DNA of 64,000 nucleotides from Candidatus Woesebacteria bacterium RBG_13_46_13 (GCA_001791995.1 MGFR01000001.1:78880-142879), one strand, 5' to 3'; positions 8,796 through 52,465 are shown, counted from the stretch's first letter. The notes: generated by a model not told the origin, from the letters alone. Program-made: numbers and translations.

Positions 8796-8799
8796 TAGT

Positions 8800-10215: not shown

Positions 10216-10216
10216 C

Positions 10217-12396: not shown

Positions 12397-12510
12397 ATAA
12401 AACCTAATTTGGCTTATCGGGTTGTGTTAAAGGAAGCAGGTGAAACTCCTGCGCTGTGCCGCAACTGTATAGCCAGAAAACTAGCAACCCGGGGCTTTCC
12501 GAGCAGAAAA

Positions 12511-26152: not shown

Positions 26153-26241
26153 GGCGGTGAGGGAGGGATTCGAACCCTCGGTAACCTTGCGGCTACTCGC
26201 GCTCTCCAAGCGCGTGCACTAGACCACTATGCGACCTCACC
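26153..26241 (-). tRNA. tRNA-Ser (anticodon GGA), type II with a long variable arm
   Basis: The reverse complement starts GGTGAGGTCGCATAGTGGTCTAGTGC and has the anticodon loop TTGGAGA and a long variable arm. No CCA is encoded. Confidence 0.75.
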
Positions 26242-26248
26242 TTAGAGA

Positions 26249-26686
26249 TTACCTTTTTCTCTGACGCGCTTTTTCCCACTCTTTAAGTACGTCTTTGGCG
26301 TTCTTGTACATCTCTTTTTCTCTTTTGAGAGAAACTCTTTTAATTACGTCCTTAAGTTCCAGCCATTCGAATTTATCAAATCCGATCATCTCTCCCGCGG
26401 ACTGTTGGACCAAGAGATAATAGTAATACTTAACCGGAACCGATTTGCCGTTGATCAGGGTTGTCCCGCTGGCTCTCCCCGCTTCTTCCAAAATCCTGGC
26501 GTTCATGCCAGCCACCTCCCCGGTCATCCTGAGAGAGGCCCTCACCGAAGATTCCCCTTTGCGAACCGTAACTTTGGGAACCTCCCATTCCGCGTTCTCA
26601 CCTTGTTTGACCACCAAAAACTTACGCTTGCCGGCGTAATCTTTAAAAACAATCGCTCCTGATATCAAAAGTTGATTCGTTTTCAT
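26249..26686 (-). CDS. Nudix-fold-like protein with a degenerate Nudix box, hypothetical
   Basis: Start at the internal ATG 26686 (MKTNQLLISGAIVF...). The N-terminal extension in the ORF track overlaps two tRNA genes and is rejected. GESSVRASLRMTGEVAGM aligns to the Nudix box but lacks the REx2EE catalytic residues. Confidence 0.4.
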   Translation of the reverse strand: MKTNQLLISGAIVFKDYAGKRKFLVVKQGENAEWEVPKVTVRKGESSVRASLRMTGEVAGMNARILEEAGRASGTTLINGKSVPVKYYYYLLVQQSAGEMIGFDKFEWLELKDVIKRVSLKREKEMYKNAKDVLKEWEKARQRKR

Positions 26687-26694
26687 TTTTTTAT

Positions 26695-26782
26695 TGGCGG
26701 TGGGTACAGGATTCGAACCTGTGTAGGGCTTTCGCCCTCGGGTTTTCGAAACCCGCGCATTTGGCCGCTCTGCCAACCCACC
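26695..26782 (-). tRNA. tRNA-Ser (anticodon CGA), type II
   Basis: The reverse complement starts GGTGGGTTGGCAGAGCGGCC and has the anticodon loop TTCGAAA, a long variable arm, a TTCGAAT T-loop, and ends ACCCACCGCCA. Confidence 0.8.
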
Positions 26783-26857
26783 TGGTGCGCCTACCCAGAG
26801 TCGAACTGGGATCAACGGCTCCGCAAGCCGCTACTCTATCCATTAAGCTATAGGCGC
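26783..26857 (-). tRNA. tRNA-Arg (anticodon read as GCG)
   Basis: The reverse complement is GCGCCTATAGCTTAATGGATAGAGTAGCGGCTTGCGGAGCCGTTGATCCCAGTTCGACTCTGGGTAGGCGCACCA. The D-arm resembles E. coli tRNA-Arg. It abuts tRNA-Ser with no spacer. Confidence 0.7.
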
Positions 26858-26862
26858 TTAGA

Positions 26863-27426
26863 CTATTTGTTTCCCGGAAGTTTAGCGGCAAACCAATTGG
26901 CGGCCTTGTCCAGGTAGGAAGGTGGCGCCTCTTCTTCGGGCAAGAACTGGGAAAGCGCTTTTTTGACCTCTTCCTTGCTCTCGGGAGCCAAGACATACTC
27001 GATTCTTCCCGGCAGATTGGTACTTTCGACAACCAAAAGCTCGTTGTCAAACCTGCGGCTGAACCAGTATCTTACCAGAGCCTGCCAATCCGTTCTTTTT
27101 CCCGCAACCTTGATGCCCCGGCTGGTAATCTTATACTCCACAGCTTCGGGCTCAACGGTGCTCATGACATAGAAAAGGAAAATAAGCGAGATCAGAAGCA
27201 CAACTGGCATCCAGCCTTCAACCATAAATAGGATCAACCCCACCACGGCGGCGATGGCGATAATGGTAACGTAGTATTCCCGATCCCTACGTTTAAACGG
27301 TCTGGCCGGGGCGGTCCAGCTGATCAGGTCTTTTTCGGCCTCTCTGCGGATAACAACGGGCTGTGCTTCCTCTTTTAAAGTGCTCTTGTCCTCGGCAGTG
27401 GGCATATTATGCGTATTATACCTCAA
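26863..27426 (-). CDS. hypothetical membrane protein (two transmembrane helices plus a C-terminal soluble domain)
   Basis: 187 aa ORF. The start may be the internal Met (MPTAED...). Confidence 0.5.
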   Translation of the reverse strand: MRYNTHNMPTAEDKSTLKEEAQPVVIRREAEKDLISWTAPARPFKRRDREYYVTIIAIAAVVGLILFMVEGWMPVVLLISLIFLFYVMSTVEPEAVEYKITSRGIKVAGKRTDWQALVRYWFSRRFDNELLVVESTNLPGRIEYVLAPESKEEVKKALSQFLPEEEAPPSYLDKAANWFAAKLPGNK

Positions 27427-27473
27427 AGCAGGTTGGGTTCCAAGCTCATATCTGGTATACTTTAGGGCTATCT

Positions 27474-27558
27474 GGAGAGTATGCCGAGCGGCTAAGGCAA
27501 TGGTTTGCTAAACCATGGTCGCGAAAGCGGCCGGTGGGTTCGACTCCCGCACTCTCCG
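27474..27558 (+). tRNA. tRNA-Ser (anticodon GCT), type II
   Basis: Starts GGAGAGTATGCCGAGCGGCTAAGGC, has the anticodon loop TTGCTAA, a long variable arm and a TTCGACT T-loop. Confidence 0.8.
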
Positions 27559-27562
27559 CCCA

Positions 27563-27651
27563 GGTGAGGTGGCCGAGCGGACTATGGCGTTGGTCTTGAA
27601 AACCAATGTGGGGATTTTTCCTCACCGTGGGTTCGAATCCCACCCTCACCG
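27563..27651 (+). tRNA. tRNA-Ser (anticodon TGA), type II
   Basis: Starts GGTGAGGTGGCCGAGCGGACTATGGC, has the anticodon loop CTTGAAA, a long variable arm and a TTCGAAT T-loop. Confidence 0.8.
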
Positions 27652-27652
27652 C

Positions 27653-28347: not shown

Positions 28348-28776
28348 ATGCATATTATCAACAAAAAGGCGAGGTTTGGCTATAAGCTTGGAGAGGATAA
28401 GGTCGAAGCGGGGATTTCCCTTTCCGGAGGTGAGGCCAAGGCGGTCAGAACGGGACACGCCGACCTGACCCAATCTGTGGCCAGAGTCTTAAACGGCGAG
28501 GCTTATCTGATTAATGCCAATATTCCCGTGGCCGGGGCCAAGAACTACGTTTCAACCCGAACCAGAAGGCTGCTGTTGCACAAAGCAGAAATCCTTTCCC
28601 TCTCAACTAAAGCCAAACAGCAAAAATTGACTTTCGTGCCTACGAGACTGTATACTAAGGGCCACCTGATCAAGCTTGAGCTTGCTTTGGGCAAGCCTAA
28701 GGCCAAATTCGAAAAGAAAGAGGCCACCAAGCGCAAGGACATTCAGCGCGAGCTTGAGAGGGAGTTAAAAGTTTAG
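28348..28776 (+). CDS. smpB: SsrA-binding protein SmpB
   Basis: The N-terminus HIINKKARFGY and overall length match SmpB. The gene is followed immediately by tmRNA. Confidence 0.88.
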   Translation: MHIINKKARFGYKLGEDKVEAGISLSGGEAKAVRTGHADLTQSVARVLNGEAYLINANIPVAGAKNYVSTRTRRLLLHKAEILSLSTKAKQQKLTFVPTRLYTKGHLIKLELALGKPKAKFEKKEATKRKDIQRELERELKV

Positions 28777-29131
28777 GGGGCGACCGGTTTCGACGGAAAG
28801 TACTTTAAAAAACTGCAAGCCAAGTTCGATTCACACTTGTCAAAAGGAATCAAAAACAAGCGTCAACTCACAAAGTTACGCTGTAGCCTACGCTTAAAAA
28901 ACGTTTTTAGGTTACTGTTCTTTCGGAGGCGCCTCTTGACCGCGCCGGAAGGGCATAAACCAGTCAAGATGCCGTATCCATCTTTGGTTTGGGCTGGATA
29001 CCCAAGACACTAAACCTTACTTCAGTCAATTTTGTTGTCTTTCTACCTGAAGGAAAATTTAAGGACAACTAAGCTTGTAGTAGTTTTTTAGAAATATTTT
29101 TCGGACGAGGGTTCAATTCCCTCCGCCTCCA
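28776..29131 (+). ncRNA. ssrA: transfer-messenger RNA (tmRNA, ssrA)
   Basis: The 5' end GGGGGCGACCGGTTTCGACGG pairs with the 3' CGCCTCC acceptor. A T-arm GGACGAGGGTTCAATTCCCTCC is present. An internal frame encodes ...SYAVAYA before a stop. Confidence 0.85.
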
Positions 29132-29147
29132 CAAAAGTGTAGTTGGG

Positions 29148-31998: not shown

Positions 31999-33747
31999 TT
32001 AAAGCTTTTCGATGTTGAAAAGTGAGCTTTTCAAACCGATGTAGCCTGGGGCCCGCAGGTTAAAAGCTTCCTTAAAGGCACTCCCGGAAACGCTTTCGGA
32101 TCCTTTGTTGGTTTGGAAGGTGACGTTTAGGGTTGACCCGTCGTTGCCGTAGGTTACCGAAACCGAGGATACGCTGGTAAAGCCACCTATGCCCCGCAGG
32201 TCAGAAAGGGAATAGGGGTTTCCCCCCCAACAGCCGGTATCCACCGGTGAAATTCTCGATTTATCTCCGCCCTTGCCGTCCAAGACGTATCTGGCGTTTA
32301 AGATGTCTGCCATCTCTTCGCTCGTCAGCCAGGGATTACTTCTGCCGCAGGAAGCGCCGCCCCGGCTTTTGTACCAACCTTTATAGAACCAGGGAGAACC
32401 TCCCTTTTTATCCCAAGCGTTTCCCGGCCAACCATCTTTGCCGCCGTCCGCGTCCCATTGTCCGGGGGTGGAGTGACCCAATGAGCTATACGAGAGGGTA
32501 TAGCCTCCAGCGGTTGATGCATACCAGGAATTAACCACCTCGTTGGCGGAATTACTGACCAAGATTTTTCCCCGTGTTGCATCCACCGCTTCTTTCCATT
32601 TACCACCACTATCCGCCTTCGAGGATTTCCAGACCTGACAGGCCTCGGTCACGCAGATTGACCCCCCTGCATTTTGATTTCCCATTCTCCAGCCGACATA
32701 TGACAGGGCATAGCTTCTGGCGGCAATGGCCTGGGCCTTAAGAGCCTCCATGCCCCCTTGGTCTCCCCAGCTGGCGGGCATTTCCGCAATTCCGGGTATA
32801 TATCTTGCCTCAAAATCCATGGCTCCGGCAGAAGTTCTGATGGTGAGTGATGTATTAACATCAACGACCCTGACATCCCCGTAATAGGCCCTGAGGATCG
32901 CCTCGTAGTTTTGCCCAGCACGGGCTCTGCCGAAAGCCCCGTATTGGCTCATGCCTTTTCTGTGGGGAGCCCCAAAAGAAAATGCTCCAAAGGCCGGGGA
33001 AAAACCGGGACTGCAAAAATTGGACGAGCCGGGAGGACCGGAACAGGGCTCCAGGCTCGGGGGAACATCTCCCACCGAAGTTTGGAAACCTCCCTCCTTA
33101 AGGGCTTTAAGTTCGCTTTGCTTTGCCGAGAGGGAAGAAATATAAGTTTCCACTTTGGCTACCTCTCCCTCCAAAAATTTATATTGTTCATTTACTTTTT
33201 TCTGTGCGGCCGCGAGGGAGGTCTGGGATTTTTCGAGAGTTGCTTTGTCGTTTTTAAGCTTTATCAAATCCTCCGCGTATTTGACCATGGTTTTTCGGTC
33301 TTCATCCGCGGCTTTTTGCCTGAAGTTTATTTCCCTAAATGCCGTTGCCGCATCCGAGGAAAGAAAAGGCAGAAGGGGATCATAAAGTCTCAGGAATTTG
33401 TAATGGTTATTGGTCTTTTCCTCAAAAATGGCCTGGGCGAACGCCAGGTCTTCCTCCCTTCCCGCAATCTCTCCCTGGAGTTTCTTAAGCTGACTGGAAA
33501 TTGAAGCTAGACGCTTGTTCAAATCGTCCAGCTGTTTTTTAAGCCCGGCCAACTCCTCTTTATTTTTTTCATGCGCTGGGGCAAGAGCATCTATTTCTCT
33601 CTGGATTTCTGTAATCTGACAATCGTAGTCGGTGGCGGGACAGTTGGTTGCTTGAACAATCTGGGTCGTAAATGAGCGAGAAACAGCAAATAGCGAGATG
33701 GCGAAAAGAATAATTATTAACAAACTTCTAAGTCGCATAGTTTTCAT
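31999..33747 (-). CDS. SpoIID/LytB domain protein with an N-terminal coiled-coil (peptidoglycan remodelling)
   Basis: 582 aa with a signal or anchor, a long coiled-coil (LAGLKKQLDDLNKRL...), and a C-terminal SpoIID/LytB domain containing the GMSQYGA motif. Confidence 0.7.
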   Translation of the reverse strand: MKTMRLRSLLIIILFAISLFAVSRSFTTQIVQATNCPATDYDCQITEIQREIDALAPAHEKNKEELAGLKKQLDDLNKRLASISSQLKKLQGEIAGREEDLAFAQAIFEEKTNNHYKFLRLYDPLLPFLSSDAATAFREINFRQKAADEDRKTMVKYAEDLIKLKNDKATLEKSQTSLAAAQKKVNEQYKFLEGEVAKVETYISSLSAKQSELKALKEGGFQTSVGDVPPSLEPCSGPPGSSNFCSPGFSPAFGAFSFGAPHRKGMSQYGAFGRARAGQNYEAILRAYYGDVRVVDVNTSLTIRTSAGAMDFEARYIPGIAEMPASWGDQGGMEALKAQAIAARSYALSYVGWRMGNQNAGGSICVTEACQVWKSSKADSGGKWKEAVDATRGKILVSNSANEVVNSWYASTAGGYTLSYSSLGHSTPGQWDADGGKDGWPGNAWDKKGGSPWFYKGWYKSRGGASCGRSNPWLTSEEMADILNARYVLDGKGGDKSRISPVDTGCWGGNPYSLSDLRGIGGFTSVSSVSVTYGNDGSTLNVTFQTNKGSESVSGSAFKEAFNLRAPGYIGLKSSLFNIEKL

Positions 33748-33793
33748 TATAACAAGGATTAACTGAAAAGCTGCTTTGTGCTAAACTCAAACC

Positions 33794-34312
33794 GTGAAGA
33801 AAATACTTTTGGCCGCTGCCTTATTTTTGTTTCTTTGGATCGTCTTTCCGCCCCCGGCTTCTGCCGGTCCAACCTGTACTAATCTCGGCGGAAGTTGTAA
33901 GACAAGTTGTTCTTCCAGTGAACAAGACGGCGGCTTATCGGATTGTACAAGAAACCCCAGGGGTCCATCCGAAAAATGCTGTATTCCGGGACAAGCTGTG
34001 GGGCCAACGGCCGGTTGTTCTGATGGAGAATCTATAAATACTGCGATAGGCTGTATCCCGGTTGGAAACACTAATGCGTTTATTGGCTTTATACTGCGCT
34101 GGGCAATAGGGGTTGGTGGGGGAATCGCTTTTCTTTTAATTCTTTACGCCGGCTTTATGATCATGACCTCTTCCGGAAACCCGGATAGGCTTAAGGCGGG
34201 ACAGGAGCTGATGACCTCGGCAATTGCGGGTATAATCATGCTTATCTTTTCTGTATTTGTACTAAGAGTTATCGGAGTTGATATACTAAAACTGCCCGGT
34301 TTTGGAGATTAG
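33794..34312 (+). CDS. TrbC/VirB2-like T4SS pilin with an N-terminal cysteine-rich secreted domain (pilin paralog 1)
   Basis: GTG start. The order is a signal peptide, an 8-Cys region (CTNLGGSCKTSCSS...CC...C...C), then a two-helix pilin core (FLLILYAGFMIMTSSGNPDRLKAG...AIAGIIMLIF) shared with the seven downstream genes. Confidence 0.7.
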   Translation: MKKILLAAALFLFLWIVFPPPASAGPTCTNLGGSCKTSCSSSEQDGGLSDCTRNPRGPSEKCCIPGQAVGPTAGCSDGESINTAIGCIPVGNTNAFIGFILRWAIGVGGGIAFLLILYAGFMIMTSSGNPDRLKAGQELMTSAIAGIIMLIFSVFVLRVIGVDILKLPGFGD

Positions 34313-34314
34313 AA

Positions 34315-34635
34315 ATGCTTGCACAACTTGATTCGTCAGCCTTACAAGATCTGGAAGAAACCGCTTCCCCAAATTTTGCCGGAGGGAAAATCGGAGATAT
34401 CATCACCAACCTCCTTCCCTACCTTTTTGCTGGGGCCGGGCTTTTGTTGCTCCTTTTTCTTCTCTACGGGGGCATAAGCCTAATGCTTTCGCGGGGAGAC
34501 CCCAAGGCTGTTCAGTCCGCAAAGGATAAAATAACTGGGGCCATTGTTGGTTTTGTGATAGTCTTTTTCGCTTACTGGATCGTCCAAATTGTAGGCAAGA
34601 TTCTAGGCATAGAATCGATTGTCCAAATCTTCTAA
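34315..34635 (+). CDS. TrbC/VirB2-like pilin paralog 2
   Basis: 106 aa with a hydrophobic helix, a YGGISLMLSRGDPKAV loop and a second helix. Confidence 0.75.
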   Translation: MLAQLDSSALQDLEETASPNFAGGKIGDIITNLLPYLFAGAGLLLLLFLLYGGISLMLSRGDPKAVQSAKDKITGAIVGFVIVFFAYWIVQIVGKILGIESIVQIF

Positions 34636-34677
34636 CCCTCTTTTGAGTGTATTCCTTTTTTCTGCTAAACTAGAGCC

Positions 34678-34983
34678 GTGAATCATCTTGCTATTGATAT
34701 AGGTGCATCCTTCGGGTCGCCTTTTAGTGAAATCACAAGTGTCGGCGGGCTTGTTTCCACAATCGTTAATCTCGCTTTGGTTGTTGCTGGTCTTATCTTT
34801 CTTGTCATGTTTGTCGTGGGGGGGATAGGTATTATTTCCGGAGCTGGAAGCGATAGCCCGGAGAAGGCCGCAAAAGGAAAACAGGCAATAACAACTGCCG
34901 TAATTGGCTTTGTGGTTGTATTTGCAGCTTATTGGATAGTAAAATTGATTGAAGTCATAACCGGAATTTCAATATTGGGATGA
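34678..34983 (+). CDS. TrbC/VirB2-like pilin paralog 3
   Basis: GTG start, 101 aa, same two-helix architecture (VGGIGIISGAGSDSPEKAAKG). Confidence 0.75.
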   Translation: MNHLAIDIGASFGSPFSEITSVGGLVSTIVNLALVVAGLIFLVMFVVGGIGIISGAGSDSPEKAAKGKQAITTAVIGFVVVFAAYWIVKLIEVITGISILG

Positions 34984-35336
34984 ACAAATTTCTCAGCTTA
35001 AATTCACCTTTCGGGTCGGTCAAGTTGCCTGACCAGATTACCGCAACTTACGGAACGGACGCCGGGGCCGCCATCGGCAAGTTTCTTAATTTTACTTTAA
35101 GGGCAATGATCGTCGGAGCGGGTGTCTATGCCCTTATCAACCTTTTGGTCGCGGGCTACTCTTTTATGGCCGCCGGGGAAGACCCCAAAAAGATTGCGGG
35201 GGCTTGGTCAAAGATTTGGCAAACTCTTTTGGGGCTGGCCTTCGCTGCCGGAGCATTTGTTTTGGCGGCAATTTTCGGACAGCTTATTTTCGGAGACCCA
35301 ACATTTATTCTTAATCCCAGAATTCCGACACCATGA
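34980..35336 (+). CDS. TrbC/VirB2-like pilin paralog 4
   Basis: 118 aa with the loop FMAAGEDPKKIAG. It overlaps neighbours by 4 nt. Confidence 0.72.
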   Translation: MNKFLSLNSPFGSVKLPDQITATYGTDAGAAIGKFLNFTLRAMIVGAGVYALINLLVAGYSFMAAGEDPKKIAGAWSKIWQTLLGLAFAAGAFVLAAIFGQLIFGDPTFILNPRIPTP

Positions 35337-35686
35337 AACACTTAGCCGATATTGAGCTTGGTCCGCTTCGAGGCTTTGGTCCTTTGGGAAATCCGGAAGG
35401 AACGGGGGTCGCAACTTTCAGCAAATTTATCTCTACCATGATTGGTCTGATGACCATCATCGCCATTATTTGGTTTACCTTTGTTTTATTTACCGGGGCA
35501 ATTGCCATGATCAGCGCAGGGGGAGATAAGCAGGCTTTGGAATCTGCAAGAAAAAGAATCATTAACGGGCTTATAGGCCTGGTTGTAGTGATTGCGGCAA
35601 TTTTCATCCTCGATTTGGTCGGAAATATCTTTGGAATTCCTAACATTTTGAATTTCGGACAATTGTTTGAGCAGATTCAACAATAA
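35333..35686 (+). CDS. TrbC/VirB2-like pilin paralog 5
   Basis: 117 aa with the loop MISAGGDKQALESARKR. Confidence 0.72.
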   Translation: MKHLADIELGPLRGFGPLGNPEGTGVATFSKFISTMIGLMTIIAIIWFTFVLFTGAIAMISAGGDKQALESARKRIINGLIGLVVVIAAIFILDLVGNIFGIPNILNFGQLFEQIQQ

Positions 35687-36021
35687 TGCAACTCGCACAA
35701 GAAATTAATAACCCAGCACTGGGTCCCGCTCTTCAGGGGAAATCCGGAGCCGGATTTTTCCAGGCTTTTATCCCAAGCCTGGTGGGTATTGCCTTTGTAA
35801 TCGGGACCCTGGTTTTCTTTTTTGTAATGCTGGCCGGTGCCATCCAGTGGATTACCTCAGGGGGAGATAAGGCCGGACTTGAGGGAGCACGCGGTAAAAT
35901 AGTCAACGCACTGGTTGGTTTTATCGTCCTGCTTGCAACCTTTGCCCTACTGAAGGTAATTGAAGACTTTTTTGGAATCAATATTCTTACACTTGACATT
36001 GGACCTTTGCAAATTCAATAA
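35686..36021 (+). CDS. TrbC/VirB2-like pilin paralog 6
   Basis: 111 aa with the loop WITSGGDKAGLEGARGK. Confidence 0.75.
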   Translation: MQLAQEINNPALGPALQGKSGAGFFQAFIPSLVGIAFVIGTLVFFFVMLAGAIQWITSGGDKAGLEGARGKIVNALVGFIVLLATFALLKVIEDFFGINILTLDIGPLQIQ

Positions 36022-36026
36022 TATAG

Positions 36027-36362
36027 ATGATGTATAAATTGCTGGCGGCCACAGACATCAACCTCAAGCCAAGCGGACAATTCGGACAGTTGGGAAATCT
36101 CACAATCGGAGGAATCGTTTCCGGACTTATCAGGTTTGTTTTAGTGGTTGCGGCCTTGGTTTTCTTCTTTATTTTGGTCATCGGTGGCATCCGCTGGATC
36201 GCCTCCGGAGGAGATAAGGCCCAAACCGAAAATGCCAGAAATCAAATTACGGCGGCGCTGGTTGGCTTGGTCATCGTCTTTGCCGCCTGGGCGATAGTCC
36301 AGCTGATCAACACCTTCTTCGGAATTAACATCTTCGAGCTCTCGATTCCTACCGCTATCTAG
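36027..36362 (+). CDS. TrbC/VirB2-like pilin paralog 7
   Basis: 111 aa with the loop WIASGGDKAQTENARNQ. Confidence 0.75.
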   Translation: MMYKLLAATDINLKPSGQFGQLGNLTIGGIVSGLIRFVLVVAALVFFFILVIGGIRWIASGGDKAQTENARNQITAALVGLVIVFAAWAIVQLINTFFGINIFELSIPTAI

Positions 36363-36399
36363 GCTTGCTCTCCATACTTCATTGAGTTAAACTTTTGTT

Positions 36400-36702
36400 A
36401 TGAATGAAGGTTGTAATGCGATAACCAACGGTGTGGTTCAACTCCGCTATTTAGAGTGTGTTTTCGGAAATGTCGTAAATATCGCCCTGGCTTTTGCCGG
36501 AATCATCCTTTTTATCATGCTTATTTCCGGAGGATTTAAATACATTACCGCCGGAGGTGACCCTAAAGGCATCGAGGGAGCCAAAAAGACTCTGACTTAC
36601 GCTATCGGCGGGATTGTACTTATCGCCTTGTCGTTTCTGATACTTCAATTTATTAAACAATTCACGGGCGCCAATGTTACGGATTTTAAGATCTTCCAAT
36701 AA
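36400..36702 (+). CDS. TrbC/VirB2-like pilin paralog 8
   Basis: 100 aa with the loop YITAGGDPKGIEGAKKT. Confidence 0.75.
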   Translation: MNEGCNAITNGVVQLRYLECVFGNVVNIALAFAGIILFIMLISGGFKYITAGGDPKGIEGAKKTLTYAIGGIVLIALSFLILQFIKQFTGANVTDFKIFQ

Positions 36703-36708
36703 TGAAGT

Positions 36709-38916
36709 ATGAGGTTAAAATTTCTGCTGCATAAACTTCTGACGATACCGCTCCCGTCTGCGTTTGTCCTGACTATAGCTCTGGTTATCCATTCTTTGCT
36801 CTCTACCCCCCTTGCCGACGCCCAGGTGCCTTCTCCTTACGTGTCCTGTGAAGATACAGATAGTCCGGAGTTTCATTCTTTGCGGCCATATCAAAAAAGC
36901 CCCTGTAACCAAGAGGTTACGGAGACTGCAACTTTCTGCGGCAACCGGCTGGTTCTCTCCGATAAAGTTACCGCTATCCAAACCACCCCACCCAGGCTTG
37001 CCAATAACTGTACAGCCATAGGCGGAGGCAGATACCGCTGTACTTATACAGTTTCCGGTAAAACCGCCAACTACGAAATAGACCTGGCCAACGCCCACTT
37101 CCCCATTCTCGGCAACACCGAAGACGTGGCCAACAGCCAGCAATCAACGGACATGAACGACGCAGACAAAATGAACGAGTATGTCAGCTGGTATTTAAAC
37201 GGGGCAACCGGGAGGGCCGAATCCTCCCCGCTTTCCCAAGATGAGGAAGATATCAGAAAACTGGTTGACTTTTCCGGACCCATCAAAAAACTTCTACCCT
37301 TCGACATCCAGAACAATCTACGGGCCAATACCGTCAAAAAGGCCGTTGCAACCAAGGAGGGAGATGGAGATCTACGCCACGACCAGGTTGTCGGCTGTAC
37401 CTATGGGGTCAGAATTTTAGGTAAGGTGATTGGAGGAATTCCAGGCGCTTGTTATGAGACCGGATTAAGAGGCGTGCTTCCCCATATTGAGCACCGGCTC
37501 TCGGAATGGAACAGCCATCTTCCTCCCAAGTCTTCCGACTTTGACAATTTTCAGGACTACTGGAAAAAATATCGGGAGTGGCAAGGAAAGATTTGTTTTG
37601 AGATAGAAATTCCTTTTATGGACAACAAAAAAGTTCTGCTTTGCGGAGAAAATCCTCTTGCTCCCAACTATTACTCTAATCTTTTCGCCAATATTCCTTT
37701 TTCTTCTACAGAGGACCGGGTCGGCGAGGTGGCGGTCAATTCACAATCGGTGGCTCCCGCCTCCGAAGGACTTGAAATAAGTAACGTCTCTCTGGTCACC
37801 ACCCCGGCTGAGCTTTATTTTTCCCACACCGAAGAAGTGGCGGAGTTGGCCAGTATTCTCCAGCTGACTTTTGCCCCGGCAGGGGCATCCACTACCGGGG
37901 GGGCGACCGGGGTCTCCCCGGGTGAGGCTTGTGACCTTAAAGAGATCAGGACAAACCCTGGAGATAATCTTTTTGCAGAATCGATTACCGGAGATTTAAA
38001 ATATGACGCTTCTTTTAGCTGTGACTTCGACGGGAATGCCAGCTCAAGCGCCTGCGCGAAAGATGTCTCCATTGGGTTAGGGGTTATCACCGAAACTCCC
38101 AAGGCAGATGAGCTTTGGTCCCGGCTTGTAGCTGGACCCGCAGGAATCTTTAAAAGAATTTTCCCGAAGGTGGGAGAGGGAGGAGCCATCTTGGGAATCT
38201 TGGATATGCCCGGAGCAACCGGGGTTACCTATTCCGGAAGCGGTCTGGTCTCGGCCGGAAATCCCCAAGGCCGAGCTGGCGAAAGTGCTGAGCTTTACTT
38301 CCCCCATGTCGGAGGTATCTCCGAATATTTCCTTAAAGGAATCCAGACAATACTTCGACCCAAGGGGTTTGGTGAACAGATTCTTTCCGGGGCGGAGGGA
38401 ACCTTCGGTTCTAGCGGGGAGATTGATTGTAACGAGGATGCCCCCAACGTTTCCCTGCGGGGAACCCTAAACCGCCAGGCCACTTTCCAGCTGGCCCTAA
38501 ACTGGGTTTCGGGACAGTCCGGCAATCACGTAATGGAGTGTTATAACGATGTGGTTAAAAGGTCCAAGTCAGAAGGCTTTAACTCCGCCCTGGCTCTTTT
38601 GATCTGGCTTAATGAGAGCAATGCCAGCAACTACAACCTGTCGGTTGAGGATTTCGGAATTCACAGTTCCTCGGTCAGGGGCTTTAGCGCCCAAATAGAC
38701 CAACTTCTCCAACTCCCCAGTTACTACAGAGGTACGTTTCCGCAGTGTTATGGGCGCGGAATGAGCGATATTGAAGCCTTCTTAAGAATCTTTAAAAGCG
38801 GCAACTGCACCAGTAGTGATGGTGCTAATTATTACAGCAACTTAAGGTCGCGCTGGAGTTGGGTGTCTCCAGGGTGTTCTTTTCCGCGCAGCCCGACGGA
38901 TACGACCTGCCCTTAA
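36709..38916 (+). CDS. large secreted cysteine-containing protein, candidate pilus-associated adhesin or tip protein, hypothetical
   Basis: 735 aa with an N-terminal signal peptide and about 20 Cys, and no further transmembrane segment. It lies between the pilin array and the VirB6-like gene. Confidence 0.6.
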   Translation: MRLKFLLHKLLTIPLPSAFVLTIALVIHSLLSTPLADAQVPSPYVSCEDTDSPEFHSLRPYQKSPCNQEVTETATFCGNRLVLSDKVTAIQTTPPRLANNCTAIGGGRYRCTYTVSGKTANYEIDLANAHFPILGNTEDVANSQQSTDMNDADKMNEYVSWYLNGATGRAESSPLSQDEEDIRKLVDFSGPIKKLLPFDIQNNLRANTVKKAVATKEGDGDLRHDQVVGCTYGVRILGKVIGGIPGACYETGLRGVLPHIEHRLSEWNSHLPPKSSDFDNFQDYWKKYREWQGKICFEIEIPFMDNKKVLLCGENPLAPNYYSNLFANIPFSSTEDRVGEVAVNSQSVAPASEGLEISNVSLVTTPAELYFSHTEEVAELASILQLTFAPAGASTTGGATGVSPGEACDLKEIRTNPGDNLFAESITGDLKYDASFSCDFDGNASSSACAKDVSIGLGVITETPKADELWSRLVAGPAGIFKRIFPKVGEGGAILGILDMPGATGVTYSGSGLVSAGNPQGRAGESAELYFPHVGGISEYFLKGIQTILRPKGFGEQILSGAEGTFGSSGEIDCNEDAPNVSLRGTLNRQATFQLALNWVSGQSGNHVMECYNDVVKRSKSEGFNSALALLIWLNESNASNYNLSVEDFGIHSSSVRGFSAQIDQLLQLPSYYRGTFPQCYGRGMSDIEAFLRIFKSGNCTSSDGANYYSNLRSRWSWVSPGCSFPRSPTDTTCP

Positions 38917-38961
38917 TTAGCGTTGTCGGGGCTAACCCCCTGTTGTATGATTAAAAGAAAC

Positions 38962-40482
38962 ATGCTTAAGAAAATACTGCTGTCCTTTCTGGCGTTGTTG
39001 GTCTTATCTTTGTCTTTCGCCCCAACTGCCCACGCCCAACTTAGCGAGGGAAAATGGTACAACCAATCGTTTGGTGAATGGATGGCCAAGGTAAATGATT
39101 CCCCGGAAAACGAAATTTTTGGCGAAAGGTATTCAGCCGCACAGGTCCAATGGGTCATTTATGGACTTTTCTATTTTGTTATCAACTCGGCGACCAACGG
39201 AAACGCATCTGCGCTGTCTTGCTTGATGACTTCAACCGACCTAGACGCCTGTCGGGACGCTATTGAGAATTTGAGAAATTCTTTTCCCGGCACAAGCTCG
39301 GAAACCGGTGGGGATATATCTGGCAATCAACTATTAAAGACAATCTCTGCAAGCCCGATCTCTTTGTCTGCATATCTGAAAGATGTTGGGGGAAGACTTC
39401 ATCTCATCCCAAAGGTTGAGGCGCAAGGTTTCGGCTTCGGAGCGGCCAACCCCGCCCTCACTTTATGGAAAATTTCAAGGAATCTCGCTTACGCTTTCTT
39501 GATTATTGTAATTACGGTTATGGCTTTTATGATAATGTTTCGGGTAAAAATTTCACCCCAAACCGTAATTAGCGTTCAATCCGCTCTTCCCAAAATTGTT
39601 GCGGCCTTGATACTCATCACTTTTTCGTATGCAATTGCGGGGCTTCTGGTTGATCTTATGTATGTGGCCATAGGGCTACTTTCTGCCTTTTTGGTTAATG
39701 GCAGTTCGCCAAGTATTAGTAGTTTTACGTGGAGCCAGATGTTTAATTCTTTAACTGTGGGCAGAAATGTTTTTGACCTATTTATGGCATACTGGTTCCA
39801 GTTTTTTGCTGCAGCCTTTATAAATATCTTTAGCGCGGCGGGGCTTGTCTCCTTTTTTGTTCTTATTTTTACAATCCTGGCTTTTTTCCTACTCCTTTGG
39901 TATTCAGCAAAGGTGATTATTCTACTTCTTAAAACTTATATTCAGATTATGCTACTTATTATTGTCGGGCCGATTCTCATACTTTTAGGGACAATTTCCC
40001 AGGGTGTAGGTTTCGGCTCATGGTTAAGAAGTATGGCCGCCAATTTAGCGGTTTATCCGCTTGTGGGGTTAATGTTTACCCTCGCGCTTCTTTTTGTCCG
40101 AGCAGGACTTCCAGATTGGTGGCCGGTATGGTTGACGCCCCTTGATATAAACACTGGCTTTTTTCAAGGGCCACCGTGGGACCCCCCTCTGACGTTTGGT
40201 ACTGGGGGTGCGTCAAGCAGTCATCTCCTGTGGGTATTGGTTAGCTATGGGATTATTGTTCTTATACCGAAGGTCTCCGATATCGTCCAAGGCTTCATTT
40301 CAGGCAAGCCATTCCCGCTAGGCACGGCGATCGGAGAATCGTTGGGTGGCCCAGTCAAGCCGGTTGCCGGTTATGGGGCTGGGTACTTCGCTGAAAAAGC
40401 CACGGTTTCTACGTCAGGCAAGGGAGGCGTATATAAAGCTATTTCAACCACGCTTGAAAGATTAGCCAGGGGCGGAAGATAA
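38962..40482 (+). CDS. VirB6/TrbL-like polytopic membrane protein
   Basis: Start at the internal ATG 38962 (MLKKILLSF...). There is a signal peptide, a roughly 150 aa extracytoplasmic domain, then 6 to 8 transmembrane helices, as in VirB6/TrbL. Confidence 0.65.
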   Translation: MLKKILLSFLALLVLSLSFAPTAHAQLSEGKWYNQSFGEWMAKVNDSPENEIFGERYSAAQVQWVIYGLFYFVINSATNGNASALSCLMTSTDLDACRDAIENLRNSFPGTSSETGGDISGNQLLKTISASPISLSAYLKDVGGRLHLIPKVEAQGFGFGAANPALTLWKISRNLAYAFLIIVITVMAFMIMFRVKISPQTVISVQSALPKIVAALILITFSYAIAGLLVDLMYVAIGLLSAFLVNGSSPSISSFTWSQMFNSLTVGRNVFDLFMAYWFQFFAAAFINIFSAAGLVSFFVLIFTILAFFLLLWYSAKVIILLLKTYIQIMLLIIVGPILILLGTISQGVGFGSWLRSMAANLAVYPLVGLMFTLALLFVRAGLPDWWPVWLTPLDINTGFFQGPPWDPPLTFGTGGASSSHLLWVLVSYGIIVLIPKVSDIVQGFISGKPFPLGTAIGESLGGPVKPVAGYGAGYFAEKATVSTSGKGGVYKAISTTLERLARGGR

Positions 40483-42572: not shown

Positions 42573-43622
42573 ATGGAACAACAACACGCTATCCCGCAAC
42601 AGATCTCCTCATACCAATTCCGTTTGGTGGGAGACATGACCCTCAAACAATTTTTTCAACTGGCCGGCGGTGCTTTGGTCAGCCTTCTTTTTTACGCATC
42701 CCCATTGCCTGCTCTTATTAAGTGGCCCTTTATCATTTTCTTTGCTCTTCTGGGTGTTGCTTTGGCCTTTCTCCCTTTTGAGGAGAGGCCCCTGGAAAAG
42801 TGGATTGTGGCCTTCTTTCGCTCGGTCTATTCGCCCACTCTCTTTTACTGGCGGAAAGCCCAGGTGCCCGCTGTCTTCTTTCAGGAAGAGGCCGCACCAA
42901 CCGGCCTGGCCCCAGCTCCGCAAAAACCCGCAGGCGGATTTATCTCCATCACCGCCCCCGCAGGAACCGTCTTTTCCAAGCTGGAAGAAGCTGAAAAATC
43001 GTTTTTATCCTCCATCGGCCAGCTTTTTGGCGCAACGGCTCCCTCCGGACCCATCGCAAGCCAAGTTTCCGCACCTCTCCCGGGTGATACAGCCAAAAAA
43101 GAGGACATACAGGTACCCTACAACGCCCCTGTGCAATATCAAGCCGGTCTTGCTCCCAAAGTGGTTGTTGAGGAAAAGCCTGCCCCTGAAGCCGCTCCGA
43201 CAGAGCTTAAAACGACCTCCGTTGCCCCGGCCGTAATGACACAGCGTGTTTACGGCCAAAGGGCCCAGTACTCCATCGAGGCAGCTCCTCCTAATCCCCC
43301 AACCGTTCCCAATACCATCGTGGGGCAAATATTCGACACCCAAGGGAAAATAATCAACGGAGCCATACTTGAAATAAGGGATGCTGCGGGAAGGCCAGTT
43401 AGAGCCTTAAAAAGCAACATGCTGGGCCACTTTTTAATTGTTACTCCTCTGCAAAACGGCAATTACGACATTATCATCGAAAAGGAAGGTCTTAACTTTG
43501 AACCCATCACCTTCGAAGCAAAAGGGGAAATTGTCCCCCCCATGGCCATTAGGGCCAAGGGTGCCCAAAAAATCCTGGCAACCGAAGAGGTCATCTCTAG
43601 CAATCAGATTGCCCAAACATGA
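42573..43622 (+). CDS. VirB3/PrgI-like membrane protein with a C-terminal carboxypeptidase-regulatory-like beta domain
   Basis: The N-terminus (YQFRLVGDMTLKQFFQLAGGALVSLLFY...WPFIIFFALLGVALAF) has the VirB3/PrgI topology, and the gene sits immediately upstream of VirB4. Next comes a Pro/Ala-rich linker, then a beta-sandwich-like C-terminus. Confidence 0.5.
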   Translation: MEQQHAIPQQISSYQFRLVGDMTLKQFFQLAGGALVSLLFYASPLPALIKWPFIIFFALLGVALAFLPFEERPLEKWIVAFFRSVYSPTLFYWRKAQVPAVFFQEEAAPTGLAPAPQKPAGGFISITAPAGTVFSKLEEAEKSFLSSIGQLFGATAPSGPIASQVSAPLPGDTAKKEDIQVPYNAPVQYQAGLAPKVVVEEKPAPEAAPTELKTTSVAPAVMTQRVYGQRAQYSIEAAPPNPPTVPNTIVGQIFDTQGKIINGAILEIRDAAGRPVRALKSNMLGHFLIVTPLQNGNYDIIIEKEGLNFEPITFEAKGEIVPPMAIRAKGAQKILATEEVISSNQIAQT

Positions 43623-44290
43623 AGATACCCTACATATCAGTTCCCGATACCGCCCTGGTCTCTACCACCCAGGCCCACTTACCCGTCGCCGATATCGTCG
43701 ACGATCTGGTTTTGTATAAAGACGGCGGAGCAGCTCTGGTCATGGAGTCGACCTCTTTGAATTTCGGCCTGCTTTCCGAAAAAGAGCAACAGGCGGTGAT
43801 TGCTGCCTATGCTGCCCTGATAAACTCCCTTTCTTTTTCCTTGCAAATCGTCATCAGGACCCAGAGAAAAGATATCTCAAGCTATATGAATTATCTTGAG
43901 GCCATCTCACAAAAAATTACCAATACAAAACTTGCCTTTCTCATGCAAAGCTACAAAAAATTTATTCTGGATTCGATTAAAAAGAAGAACGTGCTGGGCA
44001 AGAAGTTCTATTTAATTATCCCTTTTAGCCCCCTGGAGCTGGGTGTTACCAAATCGCTTTTAACCACGGCCAAAAGAAAAGGGCCTCTGCCTTTTCCAGA
44101 ATCATATGTCTTAAAAAAGGCTAAGGTTGTACTCTATCCCAGGCGGGACCACCTGGTGAGACAGGCCGGAAGGCTGGGGCTTAAACTCAAGCAGCTGACC
44201 AATCTGGGCCTAATGGACCTTTTTTATGACGTTTATAATACCGAAGCGCCCGCAATCAAGAAGGAGGAGGTCTCAAGCGCCATAAAATGA
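43619..44290 (+). CDS. VirB4/TrbE/CagE-family ATPase, N-terminal fragment (split gene)
   Basis: 223 aa resembling the VirB4 N-terminal domain (DIVDDLVLYKDGGAALVMESTSLNFGLLSEKEQ). Its stop overlaps the ATG of the next ORF (ATGA). Confidence 0.65.
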   Translation: MKIPYISVPDTALVSTTQAHLPVADIVDDLVLYKDGGAALVMESTSLNFGLLSEKEQQAVIAAYAALINSLSFSLQIVIRTQRKDISSYMNYLEAISQKITNTKLAFLMQSYKKFILDSIKKKNVLGKKFYLIIPFSPLELGVTKSLLTTAKRKGPLPFPESYVLKKAKVVLYPRRDHLVRQAGRLGLKLKQLTNLGLMDLFYDVYNTEAPAIKKEEVSSAIK

Positions 44291-46086
44291 ACCCGCCAAC
44301 ATCCACCCCAACCACAGTTCCCACCGCTCCCGCCCAAGGAGCAAAACCCAACCTTCCCAAGACCGCCTTCTTTGCTCCCGGTCAAGGGTTTGGAATTCAG
44401 GACATTATCGCCCCCCAATCCCTTGAGACCGAATTTGATTACGTAAAAATCAACAACGTTTATTTCAGGACCCTGTTTGTAGCAGGATATCCCCGTTTTG
44501 TCTCCCCAGGCTGGCTCGAGCCGATAATTAACTTTGACAGCTCTCTGGATATTTCCTTCTATCTTTATCCGGTCGAGGGCAAAACGGTTCTTGATGATTT
44601 AAGAAGGAAGATTGCCGAGATGGAGGCCGAAATCGCCACCGACCTTGAGAGAGGGAAGATTGTCGATCCTTCTACCCAGGCAAAGCTTGAGGACGCAAGG
44701 AACTTGCAGGAACAATTGGTAAAAGGGGCCGAGCGTTTTTTCCAATTTTCTTTTTATATCACCATCCCCGCCTTGACGCTCGAGGAATTAAACCAGTTAA
44801 CCCGACAGGTCGAGTCAACACTTGGCTCAATTCTGGTCGTTGCCAAACACGCAACCCTGGATATGGAAAACGGCTTTATTTCCAGCGCCCCTTTCGGAAT
44901 CGACCGGCTCTCAATCACCAGAAACATGGATACCACGTCTTTGGCAACCACCTTTCCCTTAACCTCCGCTGAGCTCTCCTCGGACACCGGAGTTCTTTAC
45001 GGAACCAACTCCGAAAATGAATCTTTCATTATCTTTGACCGCTTCTCTTTGGAAAACGCCAACATGACTATTTTTGCAACTTCTGGGGCTGGGAAAAGTT
45101 ATTTTGTGAAGCTTGAAGCGTTAAGGTCGTTAATGATCGGGACCGAGGTTATAGTTATCGACCCCGAATCCGAATACAAAGCCCTGGCCGACGCGGCCGG
45201 GGGTGAATTTATCTCATTCTCCTTTTCCTCTCCTTCGAAGATAAATCCTTTTGACCTGTCGCAAATTTATGAGGCGGGCGAAAACCAGCTGGGCTTAAAA
45301 ATTCTTTCCCTGCACTCGCTCTTCAAGGTGATTATGGGTTCAATCACCCCGTCCCAGGAGGCTCTCTTGGATAGAGCTTTGGTCTCAACTTATCGGGCAA
45401 AGGGAATAACCCAGGATCCGGCAACCCAAAAGAAAGAGCCGCCCTTGATGGAGGATTTATATAAAACCTTAATCGGCATGGAGACCGCCGAGGCCATGGA
45501 CTTGGCTGCAAGAATCGAAAAGTTCGTTCGCGGCTCGTTTGTCGGCATCTTTGATAAACAAACCAACGTCAACATCAAAAATCCGTTTACTGTATTCTCG
45601 GTAAAGGATCTACAGGATGCCCTACGTCCCATCGCCATGTTTATCATCCTCGACTTTATCTGGACCAAGGTGAAAAAGGACCTGAAAAAAAGGCTGTTGG
45701 TGGTAGATGAGGCCTGGCACATGATGCGGTATCCCGATTCCGCCCAGTTTCTTTGGTCGGTAGTCAAGCGTGCCAGAAAATACTATCTGGGCCTAACCAC
45801 CATCACCCAGGACGTCGAGGACTTTCTGGGCCAGGATATCGGCAAGGCGATATTGACCAACTCCTCCATGCAGCTGTTGCTCAAACAATCCCCTGCAGCC
45901 ATCGATAAAATCGCCGAGGTCTTTTATCTCTCCCAAGGAGAAAAACAGCTTCTCCTGGCTGCCAACGTTGGTGAAGGAATCTTCTTCGCCGGGCCCCACC
46001 ATGCCCCCATTCGAGTGGTCGCCTCGGAAGATGAGCATAAACTAATTACCACTAAGCCGTTGGAAAGAATGGTTCCGAATATTTAG
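44287..46086 (+). CDS. VirB4/TrbE/TraE-family T4SS ATPase, main part with Walker A/B motifs
   Basis: 599 aa with Walker A TSGAGKSYF, Walker B LLVVDEAWHM, and a C-terminal part typical of VirB4 (AAA_10). Confidence 0.82.
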   Translation: MNPPTSTPTTVPTAPAQGAKPNLPKTAFFAPGQGFGIQDIIAPQSLETEFDYVKINNVYFRTLFVAGYPRFVSPGWLEPIINFDSSLDISFYLYPVEGKTVLDDLRRKIAEMEAEIATDLERGKIVDPSTQAKLEDARNLQEQLVKGAERFFQFSFYITIPALTLEELNQLTRQVESTLGSILVVAKHATLDMENGFISSAPFGIDRLSITRNMDTTSLATTFPLTSAELSSDTGVLYGTNSENESFIIFDRFSLENANMTIFATSGAGKSYFVKLEALRSLMIGTEVIVIDPESEYKALADAAGGEFISFSFSSPSKINPFDLSQIYEAGENQLGLKILSLHSLFKVIMGSITPSQEALLDRALVSTYRAKGITQDPATQKKEPPLMEDLYKTLIGMETAEAMDLAARIEKFVRGSFVGIFDKQTNVNIKNPFTVFSVKDLQDALRPIAMFIILDFIWTKVKKDLKKRLLVVDEAWHMMRYPDSAQFLWSVVKRARKYYLGLTTITQDVEDFLGQDIGKAILTNSSMQLLLKQSPAAIDKIAEVFYLSQGEKQLLLAANVGEGIFFAGPHHAPIRVVASEDEHKLITTKPLERMVPNI

Positions 46087-48464: not shown

Positions 48465-48920
48465 ATGAAGGCTTTTTTAAAGAAATACAGATTCGTTATT
48501 CTCCTGATAGCTATTTTTCTCTTGATCGCTGCTTTCTTGTTGGTCAAAAAAAATCAAAGCCCAGCCCCTTCCCCCACCCCAACCCCTACCCCACTTCAAC
48601 TTGTCCAGTTTTATCCTTCCCAGGGAGAACAAGAAATTGCGGTGCCCTTGGTTGCCCTGGCCTACACCTTTTCGACCCCCGTTGATTCCTCTACTGCAAA
48701 TATTATTATTTCCCCCTTTGTCGGCTTTGAACTTTCAACCGATGCCAGCGGAAAAATTCTCTATATCACCCCCACCGCAGAATGGAAATACGACACTCTG
48801 TACAAGGTTACAATAACGATAAGCTCTAAAGAGGGGGTTACACTTTCTACACCAGTGGAGCATTCATTCCTGTTCAAGAAGGTCAGCAAAAGCAACTTCG
48901 ACGAAAACTGGGCTCTTTAA
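48465..48920 (+). CDS. membrane-anchored Ig-like (Big-type) domain protein, hypothetical
   Basis: 151 aa with an N-terminal transmembrane helix, a PTPTPTP linker and a beta-rich domain. Confidence 0.5.
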   Translation: MKAFLKKYRFVILLIAIFLLIAAFLLVKKNQSPAPSPTPTPTPLQLVQFYPSQGEQEIAVPLVALAYTFSTPVDSSTANIIISPFVGFELSTDASGKILYITPTAEWKYDTLYKVTITISSKEGVTLSTPVEHSFLFKKVSKSNFDENWAL

Positions 48921-51576: not shown

Positions 51577-51657
51577 AGCTGTCGGTATACATATGGCTTT
51601 TCTGGAGCAGTGGGGTGCACGAAAGTTAGCCCTATGACCCAATGCACTATTATAAAC

Positions 51658-52241: not shown

Positions 52242-52465
52242 AGAAAACTATCTTATTTTTAAACAGTCTTTATAAAAGATTTATTTCAGTGCTCCTGCGT
52301 AATTTGTTTGGCGAAGGCTGTCGCTATTCGCCGACCTGCAGCGCTTACTCGGCCGAAGCCATAGAAAGATTCGGAGTAGTTAAGGGGACAGCCTTAAGTT
52401 TAAAAAGAATTGCGCGTTGTCATCCTTTTGCCAAAGGCGGGCTTGATCCGGTACCAGCAAAATGA
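52238..52465 (+). CDS. yidD: membrane protein insertion efficiency factor YidD
   Basis: 75 aa with the [10 protein letters not shown] and [12 protein letters not shown] motifs. Confidence 0.88.

Follow-up and report, generated by a model that had tools for sequence, protein, structure and literature searches.

The type IV secretion systems (T4SSs) of Patescibacteria are related to the MPF-FATA type, usually carry no relaxase, often lie near the replication origin and include VirB2-like pilins that are otherwise absent from the T4SSs of monoderm bacteria (PMC12102498). A survey counted 441 arrays of 2–11 pilin genes, with a mean identity of about 25%, found especially in Microgenomatia, the class that contains Woesebacteria (PMC12102498; Quinonero-Coronel et al. 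2025). Few machines have been shown to be indispensable to Patescibacteria living as epibionts, and the T4SS is among them: in Southlakia epibionticum ML1, whose array comprises SEML1_0006–0019 (Wang et al. 2023 Cell, PMC10633639), transposon sequencing found the pilin series to be essential (PMC10633639; PMC12857230). Here we analyse an array of eight tandem pilin genes (p1–p8; positions 33794–36702, plus strand) in a stretch of 64,000 nucleotides (nt) from Candidatus Woesebacteria bacterium RBG_13_46_13 (GCA_001791995.1 MGFR01000001.1:78880-142879), hereafter the window. The octet is fixed in number and order among its relatives, a pattern that argues for eight non-redundant parts of one structure, and its first member bears a cysteine-rich head that appears to be exchanged between lineages and has a predicted beta-defensin-like fold.

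The locus is a chromosomal, origin-proximal T4SS of the Patescibacteria type already published (PMC12102498, PMC10633639). It has the attributes by which such arrays are recognized, namely at least two tandem VirB2-like genes of low identity near virB4 and close to the origin, and it resembles those of Southlakia and the surveyed Patescibacteria in its tandem divergent members of Pfam family PF18895 (T4SS_pilin), standing beside virB4 and a PrgI/VirB3 gene in a relaxase-less chromosomal system; among the 38 window open reading frames (ORFs) scanned, which comprised the locus and the larger ORFs, none matched a relaxase or coupling-protein family of Pfam. The pilin array itself is therefore known (Wang 2023; Quinonero-Coronel 2025). 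What appears new, as far as the searched literature shows, is the fixed octet, a p7 promoter embedded in p6, and a cassette-like Cys-rich head whose beta-defensin-like module is shared with DPANN archaea: PMC12102498, PMC12857230 and PMC10633639 report neither a fixed octet, nor a private p7 promoter, nor a Sec-dependent first pilin with cassette heads.

The Gram-negative pilins VirB2, TrbC and TraA are likewise small two-helix proteins with a short polar loop, encoded in VirB4-containing loci, and p2 has a weak match to the TrbC/VirB2 family of Pfam (E 2.3e-4). In those systems a single gene supplies the pilin, as a pro-pilin that loses a long leader by cleavage and is sometimes cyclised, alongside a VirB5 tip protein, whereas the window array has eight genes, a signal peptide in p1 only, no detected VirB5 and a monoderm host. 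An analogy of organization is offered by type IV pili (PilA with FimU/PilVWXE) and the pseudopili of type II secretion systems (GspG with GspHIJK), in which, as is well established, an abundant major subunit is combined with conserved low-copy minor paralogs, some of them at a specificity-bearing tip; these belong to an unrelated family, with a different fold (an N-terminal helix plus globular head, as against a helical hairpin) and a different assembly machinery. Bartonella and Anaplasma also hold multiple divergent virB2 copies in a T4SS locus, copies that have been read as a means of antigenic variation (PMC12102498), whereas the window array is fixed in number, order and sequence across genomes.

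Eight divergent pilins in one array

All eight genes are intact ORFs with start codons, and each encodes a VirB2-like pilin: p1 (33794–34312, 172 amino acids (aa), with the Cys-rich head), p2 (34315–34635, 106 aa), p3 (34678–34983, 101 aa; positional orthologues 45–55% identical), p4 (34980–35336, 118 aa), p5 (35333–35686, 117 aa), p6 (35686–36021, 111 aa), p7 (36027–36362, 111 aa; the most conserved of the paralogs) and p8 (36400–36702, 100 aa). The gap between p1 and p2 is 2 nt, ATGA overlaps join p3 to p4 and p4 to p5, and a TAATG overlap joins p5 to p6; the common strand and these overlaps are evidence for co-expression. Every one of the eight matches PF18895, and five reach its gathering score of 26.6 bits (p2, 37.7; p3, 47.7; p5, 28.8; p7, 38.1; p8, 37.3 bits). 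The other three (p1, 22.6; p4, 13.0; p6, 16.0 bits) are tied to the remaining pilins by a hidden Markov model (HMM) built from the window's eight proteins, hereafter the array HMM (6e-32 for p4), and by BLAST (p6–p7, 47% identity, E 1e-21; p1–p8, E 7e-7; p4–p8, E 8e-5).

Each pilin shows two hydropathy peaks separated by a short sGGD(P)K-type loop, and since pairwise protein identity within the array is only 25–47%, we regard the eight as old paralogs. The p1 sequence is 100% identical to that of A2V61_01805, a hypothetical protein of Ca. Woesebacteria. An AlphaFold2 (AF2) model of p1, from an alignment of 38 sequences, has a mean predicted local distance difference test score (pLDDT) of 81 and comprises the signal helix (residues 2–17), a small beta region, a hairpin and two long helices (93–125 and 130–165, pLDDT about 80–86). 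Taken together, Pfam membership, the AF2 model and the T4SS context support the eight ORFs as divergent VirB2-like helical-hairpin pilins. In these respects the analysis bears out a preliminary description made from the DNA sequence by itself, which had reported eight consecutive genes of 100–172 aa sharing a two-helix core with a short loop, had taken them for divergent paralogs rather than recent duplicates, several of them coupled through ATGA or TAATG overlaps, and had read them as VirB2-like hairpins; the shared fold that this last reading presupposes is supported. By hydropathy, a hydrophobic N-terminal signal occurs in p1 only. The N-termini of p2–p8 consist of 25–40 polar residues, kept among orthologues and with no h-region, and a Sec signal on these seven was rejected on that basis.

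A fixed octet across related loci

A scan of a genome collection seeded with p1 yielded 20 related loci, one per species, on which the array HMM was run. Exactly eight tandem pilin ORFs were found in all 15 loci whose contig spans the region, a regularity that chance could hardly produce; on two truncated contigs the first three pilin genes are present, and L021, a near-identical metagenome contig, has eight as well. Position within the array is conserved as well: in 1911 of 1920 cross-locus comparisons (16 arrays) the best BLAST match lay at the same array position, the window paralogs being 50–72% identical to their positional orthologues and 25–47% to one another. Each position also has its own conserved signature, such as the C-terminal tail FILNPxIPT of p4. 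Because the flanking genes, though syntenic in the related loci, are merely 28–60% identical, the octet has been kept through deep divergence.

The longest direct DNA repeat inside the array measures 86 nt at 72% identity. Neither near-identical repeats nor silent copies suited to gene conversion were found in the array, and its inverted repeats are short and weak, none of them switch-like; gene conversion and an invertible switch were both rejected on this repeat content. With the octet fixed, its members orthologous by position and recombination substrates lacking, a variation system is disfavoured and a set of eight non-redundant subunits favoured. The phase or antigenic variation that the preliminary description had proposed is not supported, given the constant copy number and order, repeats of at most 86 nt at 72% identity, and genes that are co-oriented and translationally coupled. 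Its further suggestion of alternative major or minor pilins holds in part: a division into major and minor subunits fits the positional orthologues and the p7 promoter described below, but alternative use of the genes is unsupported.

Two observations on the related loci may be recorded here. L020, a marine rock-biofilm Patescibacteria metagenome-assembled genome (MAG; JAHJIX010000002.1) distant from the window, carries 13 tandem pilin-like ORFs of 110–332 aa at 2086–11158, many with long N-terminal extensions, a count above the published range of 2–11. Loci L003, L006, L008, L010–L012 and L016–L018 show the full synteny of the Woesebacteria-type locus, yet their records are titled 'uncultured Gammaproteobacteria' or 'Alphaproteobacteria', titles that are probably taxonomic mislabels of these MAGs.

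A predicted private promoter for the seventh pilin

A predicted sigma-70 promoter, TTGACA-18-AATAAT, matches 11 of 12 consensus positions at 35993–36022 (plus strand) and ends 4 nt 5' of the p7 ATG, with no Shine-Dalgarno sequence at that start. A promoter of the same quality, TTGACA-18-[AG]ATAAT, stands 4–12 nt before the called p7 start in 13 of the 16 genomes, against a background of 0.03%. Its -35 element falls within the conserved LTLDIG codons that end p6 and its -10 element overlaps the p6 stop codon, so that the p6 C-terminal peptide LTLDIG..IQ and the promoter share the same bases; conservation of that peptide may reflect the promoter as much as protein constraint. Identity of p7 to its orthologues is 67–89% (mean 72%), the highest of the eight paralogs. 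Since it is both the most conserved pilin and the one with its own conserved near-consensus promoter, we infer that p7 is the high-copy, or major, subunit.

Promoter-like elements of another kind mark other starts in the array. Upstream of p1, TGCTAAACT is followed by 6 nt and the GTG start (33775–33798, plus strand), and this is one of two copies of a 24-nt repeat; the second (TGCTAAACT-N6-GTG), 83% identical to the first, lies at the p3 start (34659–34682, plus strand). At p8 a -10-like TAAACT begins at 36388 (plus strand), again 6 nt before the ATG. The pattern TAAACT-N6-RTG has three occurrences in the window against 0.74 expected, and each is at the start of a pilin gene (p1, p3 and p8); these sites score below the 9/12 threshold of the promoter scan and were detected by pattern search and comparative scoring. 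Many relatives carry TAnAAT boxes some 6 nt ahead of the start (at p3, about half of the related loci do), and the gap between p7 and p8 is always 27–55 nt in those loci, with a single exception of 531 nt. The p1 GTG may be a leaderless start, and the TAAACT and TAnAAT boxes as a group suggest leaderless sub-operons p1–p2, p3–p6, p7 and p8.

A variable head on the first pilin

The first pilin is built in three parts. A Sec-type signal peptide, residues 1–24 (MKKILLAAALFLFLWIVFPPPASA, followed by GP), is encoded at 33794–33865 (plus strand), with its hydrophobic segment at residues 4–22; the signal is conserved in relatives with an AxA-like end, here ASA before GP at the predicted cleavage site. 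Next comes the head, a six-Cys beta-defensin-like module of net charge 0 (residues 25–67; 33866–33994, plus strand), and then the conserved pilin core (33995–34312, plus strand), delimited by columns invariant in relatives and by the AF2 model. Within the core lie a Cys75–Cys87 hairpin (34016–34054; AF2 strands 80–83 and 86–89), helix 1 (34070–34168), the loop SSGNPDRLK and helix 2 (34181–34288). The preliminary description had given p1 an extra secreted domain with eight cysteines. Eight cysteines and an N-terminal signal are indeed present, but the extra domain accounts for six of them (C28–C63); C75 and C87 form the invariant hairpin of the p1-type core, found in all relatives, headless ones included.

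Database searches returned 1420 relatives of p1, and the top 70 were compared for core and head. Their cores are 77–100% identical to that of the window p1. What separates signal from core, by contrast, ranges from nothing at all through a Pro/Thr linker to Cys-rich modules, which occur singly or several together and fall into at least eight unrelated kinds; Cys counts are mostly 0, 6, 10 or 12. This pattern suggests that the p1 head is exchanged between lineages like a cassette on a highly conserved core, an arrangement that appears to be new.

The near-identical contig L021 gives a view of this variation over a short evolutionary distance. Over about 18 kb its DNA is 94–97% identical to the window, and at the protein level p4–p8 and the 735-aa protein encoded directly after the array are 99% identical; p2 is only 69% identical, and the p1 head (33839–34003) is without any DNA similarity. 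A stretch comprising the p1 C-terminal tail and the p2 N-terminal tail (34254–34430) is 40–62% identical, and the helix-coding part of p1 that adjoins it (34134–34253) is 100% identical. Between p2 and p3, L021 has a further 840 bp, an insertion in which a 222-aa ORF with no Pfam family on record lies on the minus strand. Window 33839–34650 against L021 10047–11745 has the look of a localised recombination or diversification hotspot. Because the differences fall where they do, variation is confined to predicted extracellular parts of the p1–p2 pair, which is what would be expected of an exposed specificity determinant. The idea, also in the preliminary description, that the p1 head serves as a tip or adhesin module is plausible, and the cassette-like polymorphism strengthens it.

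A beta-defensin-like module

Beta-defensins follow the six-Cys consensus C-x(4-8)-C-x(3-5)-C-x(9-13)-C-x(4-7)-CC. The window head reads C-x6-C-x3-C-x11-C-x10-CC, with three spacings in range and a longer C4–C5 interval (10 residues); in a second sub-type found among relatives, C-x3-C-x3-C-x12-C-x6-CC, C4–C5 is in range and C1–C2 is one residue short. Across 28 aligned modules collected from relatives, 12 match Pfam Defensin_beta_2 at E < 0.1 (best E 5.5e-5) and one matches Defensin_beta at 1e-5. Gathering scores are reached by two members of the family, P0083 (28.9 bits for Defensin_beta_2, gathering score 22.2) and P0011 (22.4 bits), while the window module stays below them (Defensin_beta_2, 12.8 bits against 22.2; Defensin_big, 16.4 bits against 25). 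A profile of the module run against the sequences of the PDB gave 13 matches at E <= 10, all of them defensin-fold peptides, including crocodile CpoBD13 (E 0.0017), crotamine, beta-defensins 1 and 106, alpha-defensin 6 and helianthamide.

The AF2 model of the module (pLDDT 84) has three strands, forming a predicted antiparallel sheet that can be superposed on solved defensins, and in a Foldseek search the top six hits were all defensins (probability up to 0.89, template-modelling score 0.49–0.62), with E-values that are non-significant for so tiny a domain. When animal sequences were shuffled with their cysteines held fixed, scores fell to about 0 bits against 15–33 observed (z 4–10), and none of 300 shuffles reached the observed value; the likeness of the module to defensins therefore exceeds Cys spacing. 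We thus predict a beta-defensin-like fold for the head. It is not cationic (2 K, 2 R, 2 D and 2 E, net charge 0) and is fused to a pilin core rather than released as a free peptide, and with that charge a classical cationic antimicrobial role is unlikely.

The module is rare and oddly distributed. An exhaustive search of 1.84 billion representative proteins returned only 26 matches at E <= 1e-3. Its carriers include T4SS_pilin fusions with one to four tandem modules on different pilin subtypes, small transmembrane-anchored proteins, surface proteins that bear dockerins (one from Ca. Shapirobacteria), an 817-aa surface protein of a DPANN archaeon (Aenigmarchaeota) and one animal protein, which has three modules (E 4.5e-9) and comes from the acorn worm Saccoglossus kowalevskii. 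Two groups of ultrasmall episymbionts and one animal thus share it (the carriers that make the distribution odd are P0121, P0134, P0141 and P0125). Contamination was considered for the Saccoglossus match and is unlikely, since the protein is one of a multi-paralog worm family that has RefSeq isoforms and is spread over several large scaffolds. None of that family is annotated as a defensin, and lacking such annotation the worm protein alone is no bridge to the named animal defensins. Within the window and the 20 related loci the module was found in the window p1 only. Its tandem occurrence on surface proteins fits a binding module.

The literature consulted reports only cis-defensins from bacteria and assigns trans-defensins to animals (PMC11561630); our literature search found no paper linking defensins with Patescibacteria pilins. 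The module differs from animal beta- and big defensins in being prokaryotic and fused to a pilin or a large surface protein, often in tandem, in its longer C4–C5 interval of 10 residues, in its net charge of 0 and in the sub-threshold Pfam scores of the window copy. Homology to animal defensins is nevertheless hinted at by the Saccoglossus match and by the survival of the signal under Cys-fixed shuffling. A bolder proposal, which we put forward tentatively and consider unlikely, is that the head is a member of the trans-defensin superfamily native to ultrasmall episymbiotic prokaryotes, namely bacteria of the candidate phyla radiation (CPR) and DPANN archaea, the first outside animals, serving as an interchangeable module for recognising or attacking the host at the exposed end of a heteromeric eight-subunit T4SS pilus. 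Independently of that proposal, finding the beta-defensin-like module both in CPR bacteria and in a DPANN archaeon is relevant to where trans-defensins originated.

A probable heteromeric structure and its alternatives

We consider it probable that the eight genes encode eight non-interchangeable VirB2-like subunits, made and used together in one structure, with the p1 head facing the host. In such a scheme p1 would be exported by Sec, its mature N-terminus lying outside the membrane, which in any filament would place it at the tip or along the outer face; the pilins would insert with both termini outside, YidC possibly inserting p2–p8, and the VirB4 machine would extract the subunits into a heteromeric filament or conduit. 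Here p7 would provide the bulk subunit and p3–p6 and p8 low-copy structural or initiating subunits, while p1 and p2, a separately promoted pair, would form the exposed, fast-evolving end. The p1 head would then most likely recognise or bind the surface of the host cell that carries the episymbiont. Filament formation, the division into major and minor roles, the N-out topology and the binding function of the head are parts of this scheme that we infer from the locus as a whole.

Several points weigh against this reading. Experimental or imaging evidence of a T4SS pilus is lacking for any member of the Patescibacteria, and monoderm T4SSs are normally without one (PMC12102498, PMC12857230). The full p1 model found nothing significant against the PDB with Foldseek, only generic helical hairpins at E > 1; its rank 1 match, the conjugation pilus of the archaeon Aeropyrum (8dfu), had a non-significant E of 1.3. 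A profile of 80 array pilins run against PDB sequences matched no solved pilin; a viral attachment glycoprotein and three proteins designed de novo were its weak matches. Nor do p2–p8 have the leader, removed by cleavage, that characterizes VirB2, TraA and TrbC. The N-out topology is tentative, since the loops are neutral to +2 in charge, weakly positive at most, and the N-tails neutral to acidic. The head is neutral, the choice of p7 as candidate major subunit draws on conservation and a promoter, and the promoters here are consensus matches only.

Some of the same points favour the strongest competing explanation, in which the eight proteins are two-transmembrane membrane components of the T4SS that form no filament, but a hetero-oligomeric channel, a platform or a wall-spanning conduit, with p1 displaying a binding domain anchored at the surface. 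Beyond the general absence of a pilus from monoderm T4SSs (PMC12102498, PMC12857230) and the want of any significant structure or sequence match to solved conjugative pilins, p2–p8 resemble simple hairpin membrane proteins in having no cleavable leader, a fixed set of eight distinct subunits is more like a defined complex than a homopolymer, and the head module also occurs on plain transmembrane-anchored small proteins. Against this stand membership of PF18895 with the weak TrbC/VirB2 match, and the very strong private promoter of one paralog, which suggests a high-copy building block; the hypervariability of the exposed p1 and p2 tails is in keeping with a location at the surface, yet fails to separate a filament from a complex. 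We regard such a membrane complex as possible, though considerably less probable than a filament-like assembly of eight distinct subunits.

That p1 might instead be the precursor of an effector or toxin, its defensin-like head released or delivered on contact against the host or competitors and its pilin part acting as carrier or anchor, is suggested by the beta-defensin-like framework and predicted fold of the head, by a cassette polymorphism on a conserved carrier that recalls polymorphic toxin systems, and by the need of episymbionts to breach or manipulate the host envelope. The head is, however, uncharged on balance, unlike cationic antimicrobial defensins; many orthologues retain the core while being headless or bearing unrelated heads; no obvious processing site separates head from core; and the module is often found in tandem on dockerin-type surface proteins, as is typical of binding modules. 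We find this explanation improbable. Very improbable, finally, is that the paralogs are alternative pilins used singly, for antigenic or phase variation or for a wider host range (also suggested in PMC12102498): the arrays do hold very divergent paralogs, about 25% identical, the Bartonella and Anaplasma VirB2 expansions have been read in this way (PMC12102498), and several promoter-like sites within the array could permit differential expression, but all 16 complete genomes have eight pilins in the same order, orthology is positional (1911/1920) with position-specific signatures, long similar repeats and switch-like inverted repeats are absent, p3–p6 are translationally coupled, near-identical strains keep p4–p8 at 99% and confine change to the p1 head, the p1 C-tail, p2 and the p2–p3 spacer, and the pilin series is essential in Southlakia (PMC10633639).

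A non-redundant octet of the kind we favour disagrees with the speculative reading of PMC12102498, which prefers variation or versatility and for which the present data give no support at p3–p8, and agrees with the essentiality of the series in Southlakia. It would replace the working hypothesis of variable pilins, serving immune evasion or host range, with one of a heteromeric structure built from defined parts, modelled here as including one candidate major subunit with a private promoter and one hypervariable exposed pair. If so, the swappable p1 head is a likely determinant of host specificity, and could help to predict or match the hosts of uncultivated CPR lineages.

Locus and genomic context

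The gene directly after the array encodes a secreted protein of 735 aa that has 18 Cys and matches no Pfam family (36709–38916, plus strand); it holds the same place in 14 related loci at 28–57% identity. Next stands a syntenic polytopic membrane protein with, by hydropathy, a signal peptide and about seven transmembrane segments (38923–40482, plus strand); it has no Pfam match, and its position and topology make it a VirB6-like candidate. The PrgI/VirB3-like protein (42573–43622, plus strand; PF12666, 27.6 bits) has two transmembrane segments and a CarboxypepD_reg-like domain, and the VirB4-like T4SS ATPase (44287–46086, plus strand) matches the TraG P-loop (E 2.9e-29), DUF87 and AAA_10; between the two, on the same strand, a protein with one transmembrane segment is encoded. 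Both genes lie 6–8 kb downstream of the pilins on the same strand, in conserved synteny. A membrane protein with three transmembrane segments and a C-terminal M23 peptidase domain follows (46087–48450, plus strand; PF01551, E 2.8e-5, below the gathering score), a candidate for the cell-wall hydrolase of the T4SS, and downstream of it, on the same strand, is a gene for a Big_5 protein. The M23 protein also has a near-threshold match to Pfam 'Melittin' (19.3 against 20.6 bits; residues 361–382), just before its transmembrane segments, which is probably an amphipathic helix.

Upstream of the array and divergent from it, a syntenic gene on the minus strand (31999–33747) encodes a coiled-coil, SpoIID-domain secreted protein with 8 Cys, its start codon lying within a conserved TATAATG motif; the array thus sits between two syntenic secreted Cys-rich proteins, this one and the 735-aa protein with its 18 Cys. 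On the far side of the T4SS genes, dnaN (48917–50020) and dnaA (50209–51642, E 1e-60) lie on the strand opposite to the array, and yidC is at 52462–53289. The window also encodes rpoD, dnaG, leuS, tsaD, one tmRNA and six tRNAs. One would not expect a cobalamin riboswitch in a reduced CPR genome, and the match to one at 12405–12503 (32.8 bits against a gathering score of 31.5; 99 nt of a 189-position model) may be spurious. Four tRNA-Ser genes, covering all four anticodon families, and a tRNA-Arg gene stand beside the tmRNA (26153–27652, 28776–29134), whose tag peptide is VNSQSYAVAYA.

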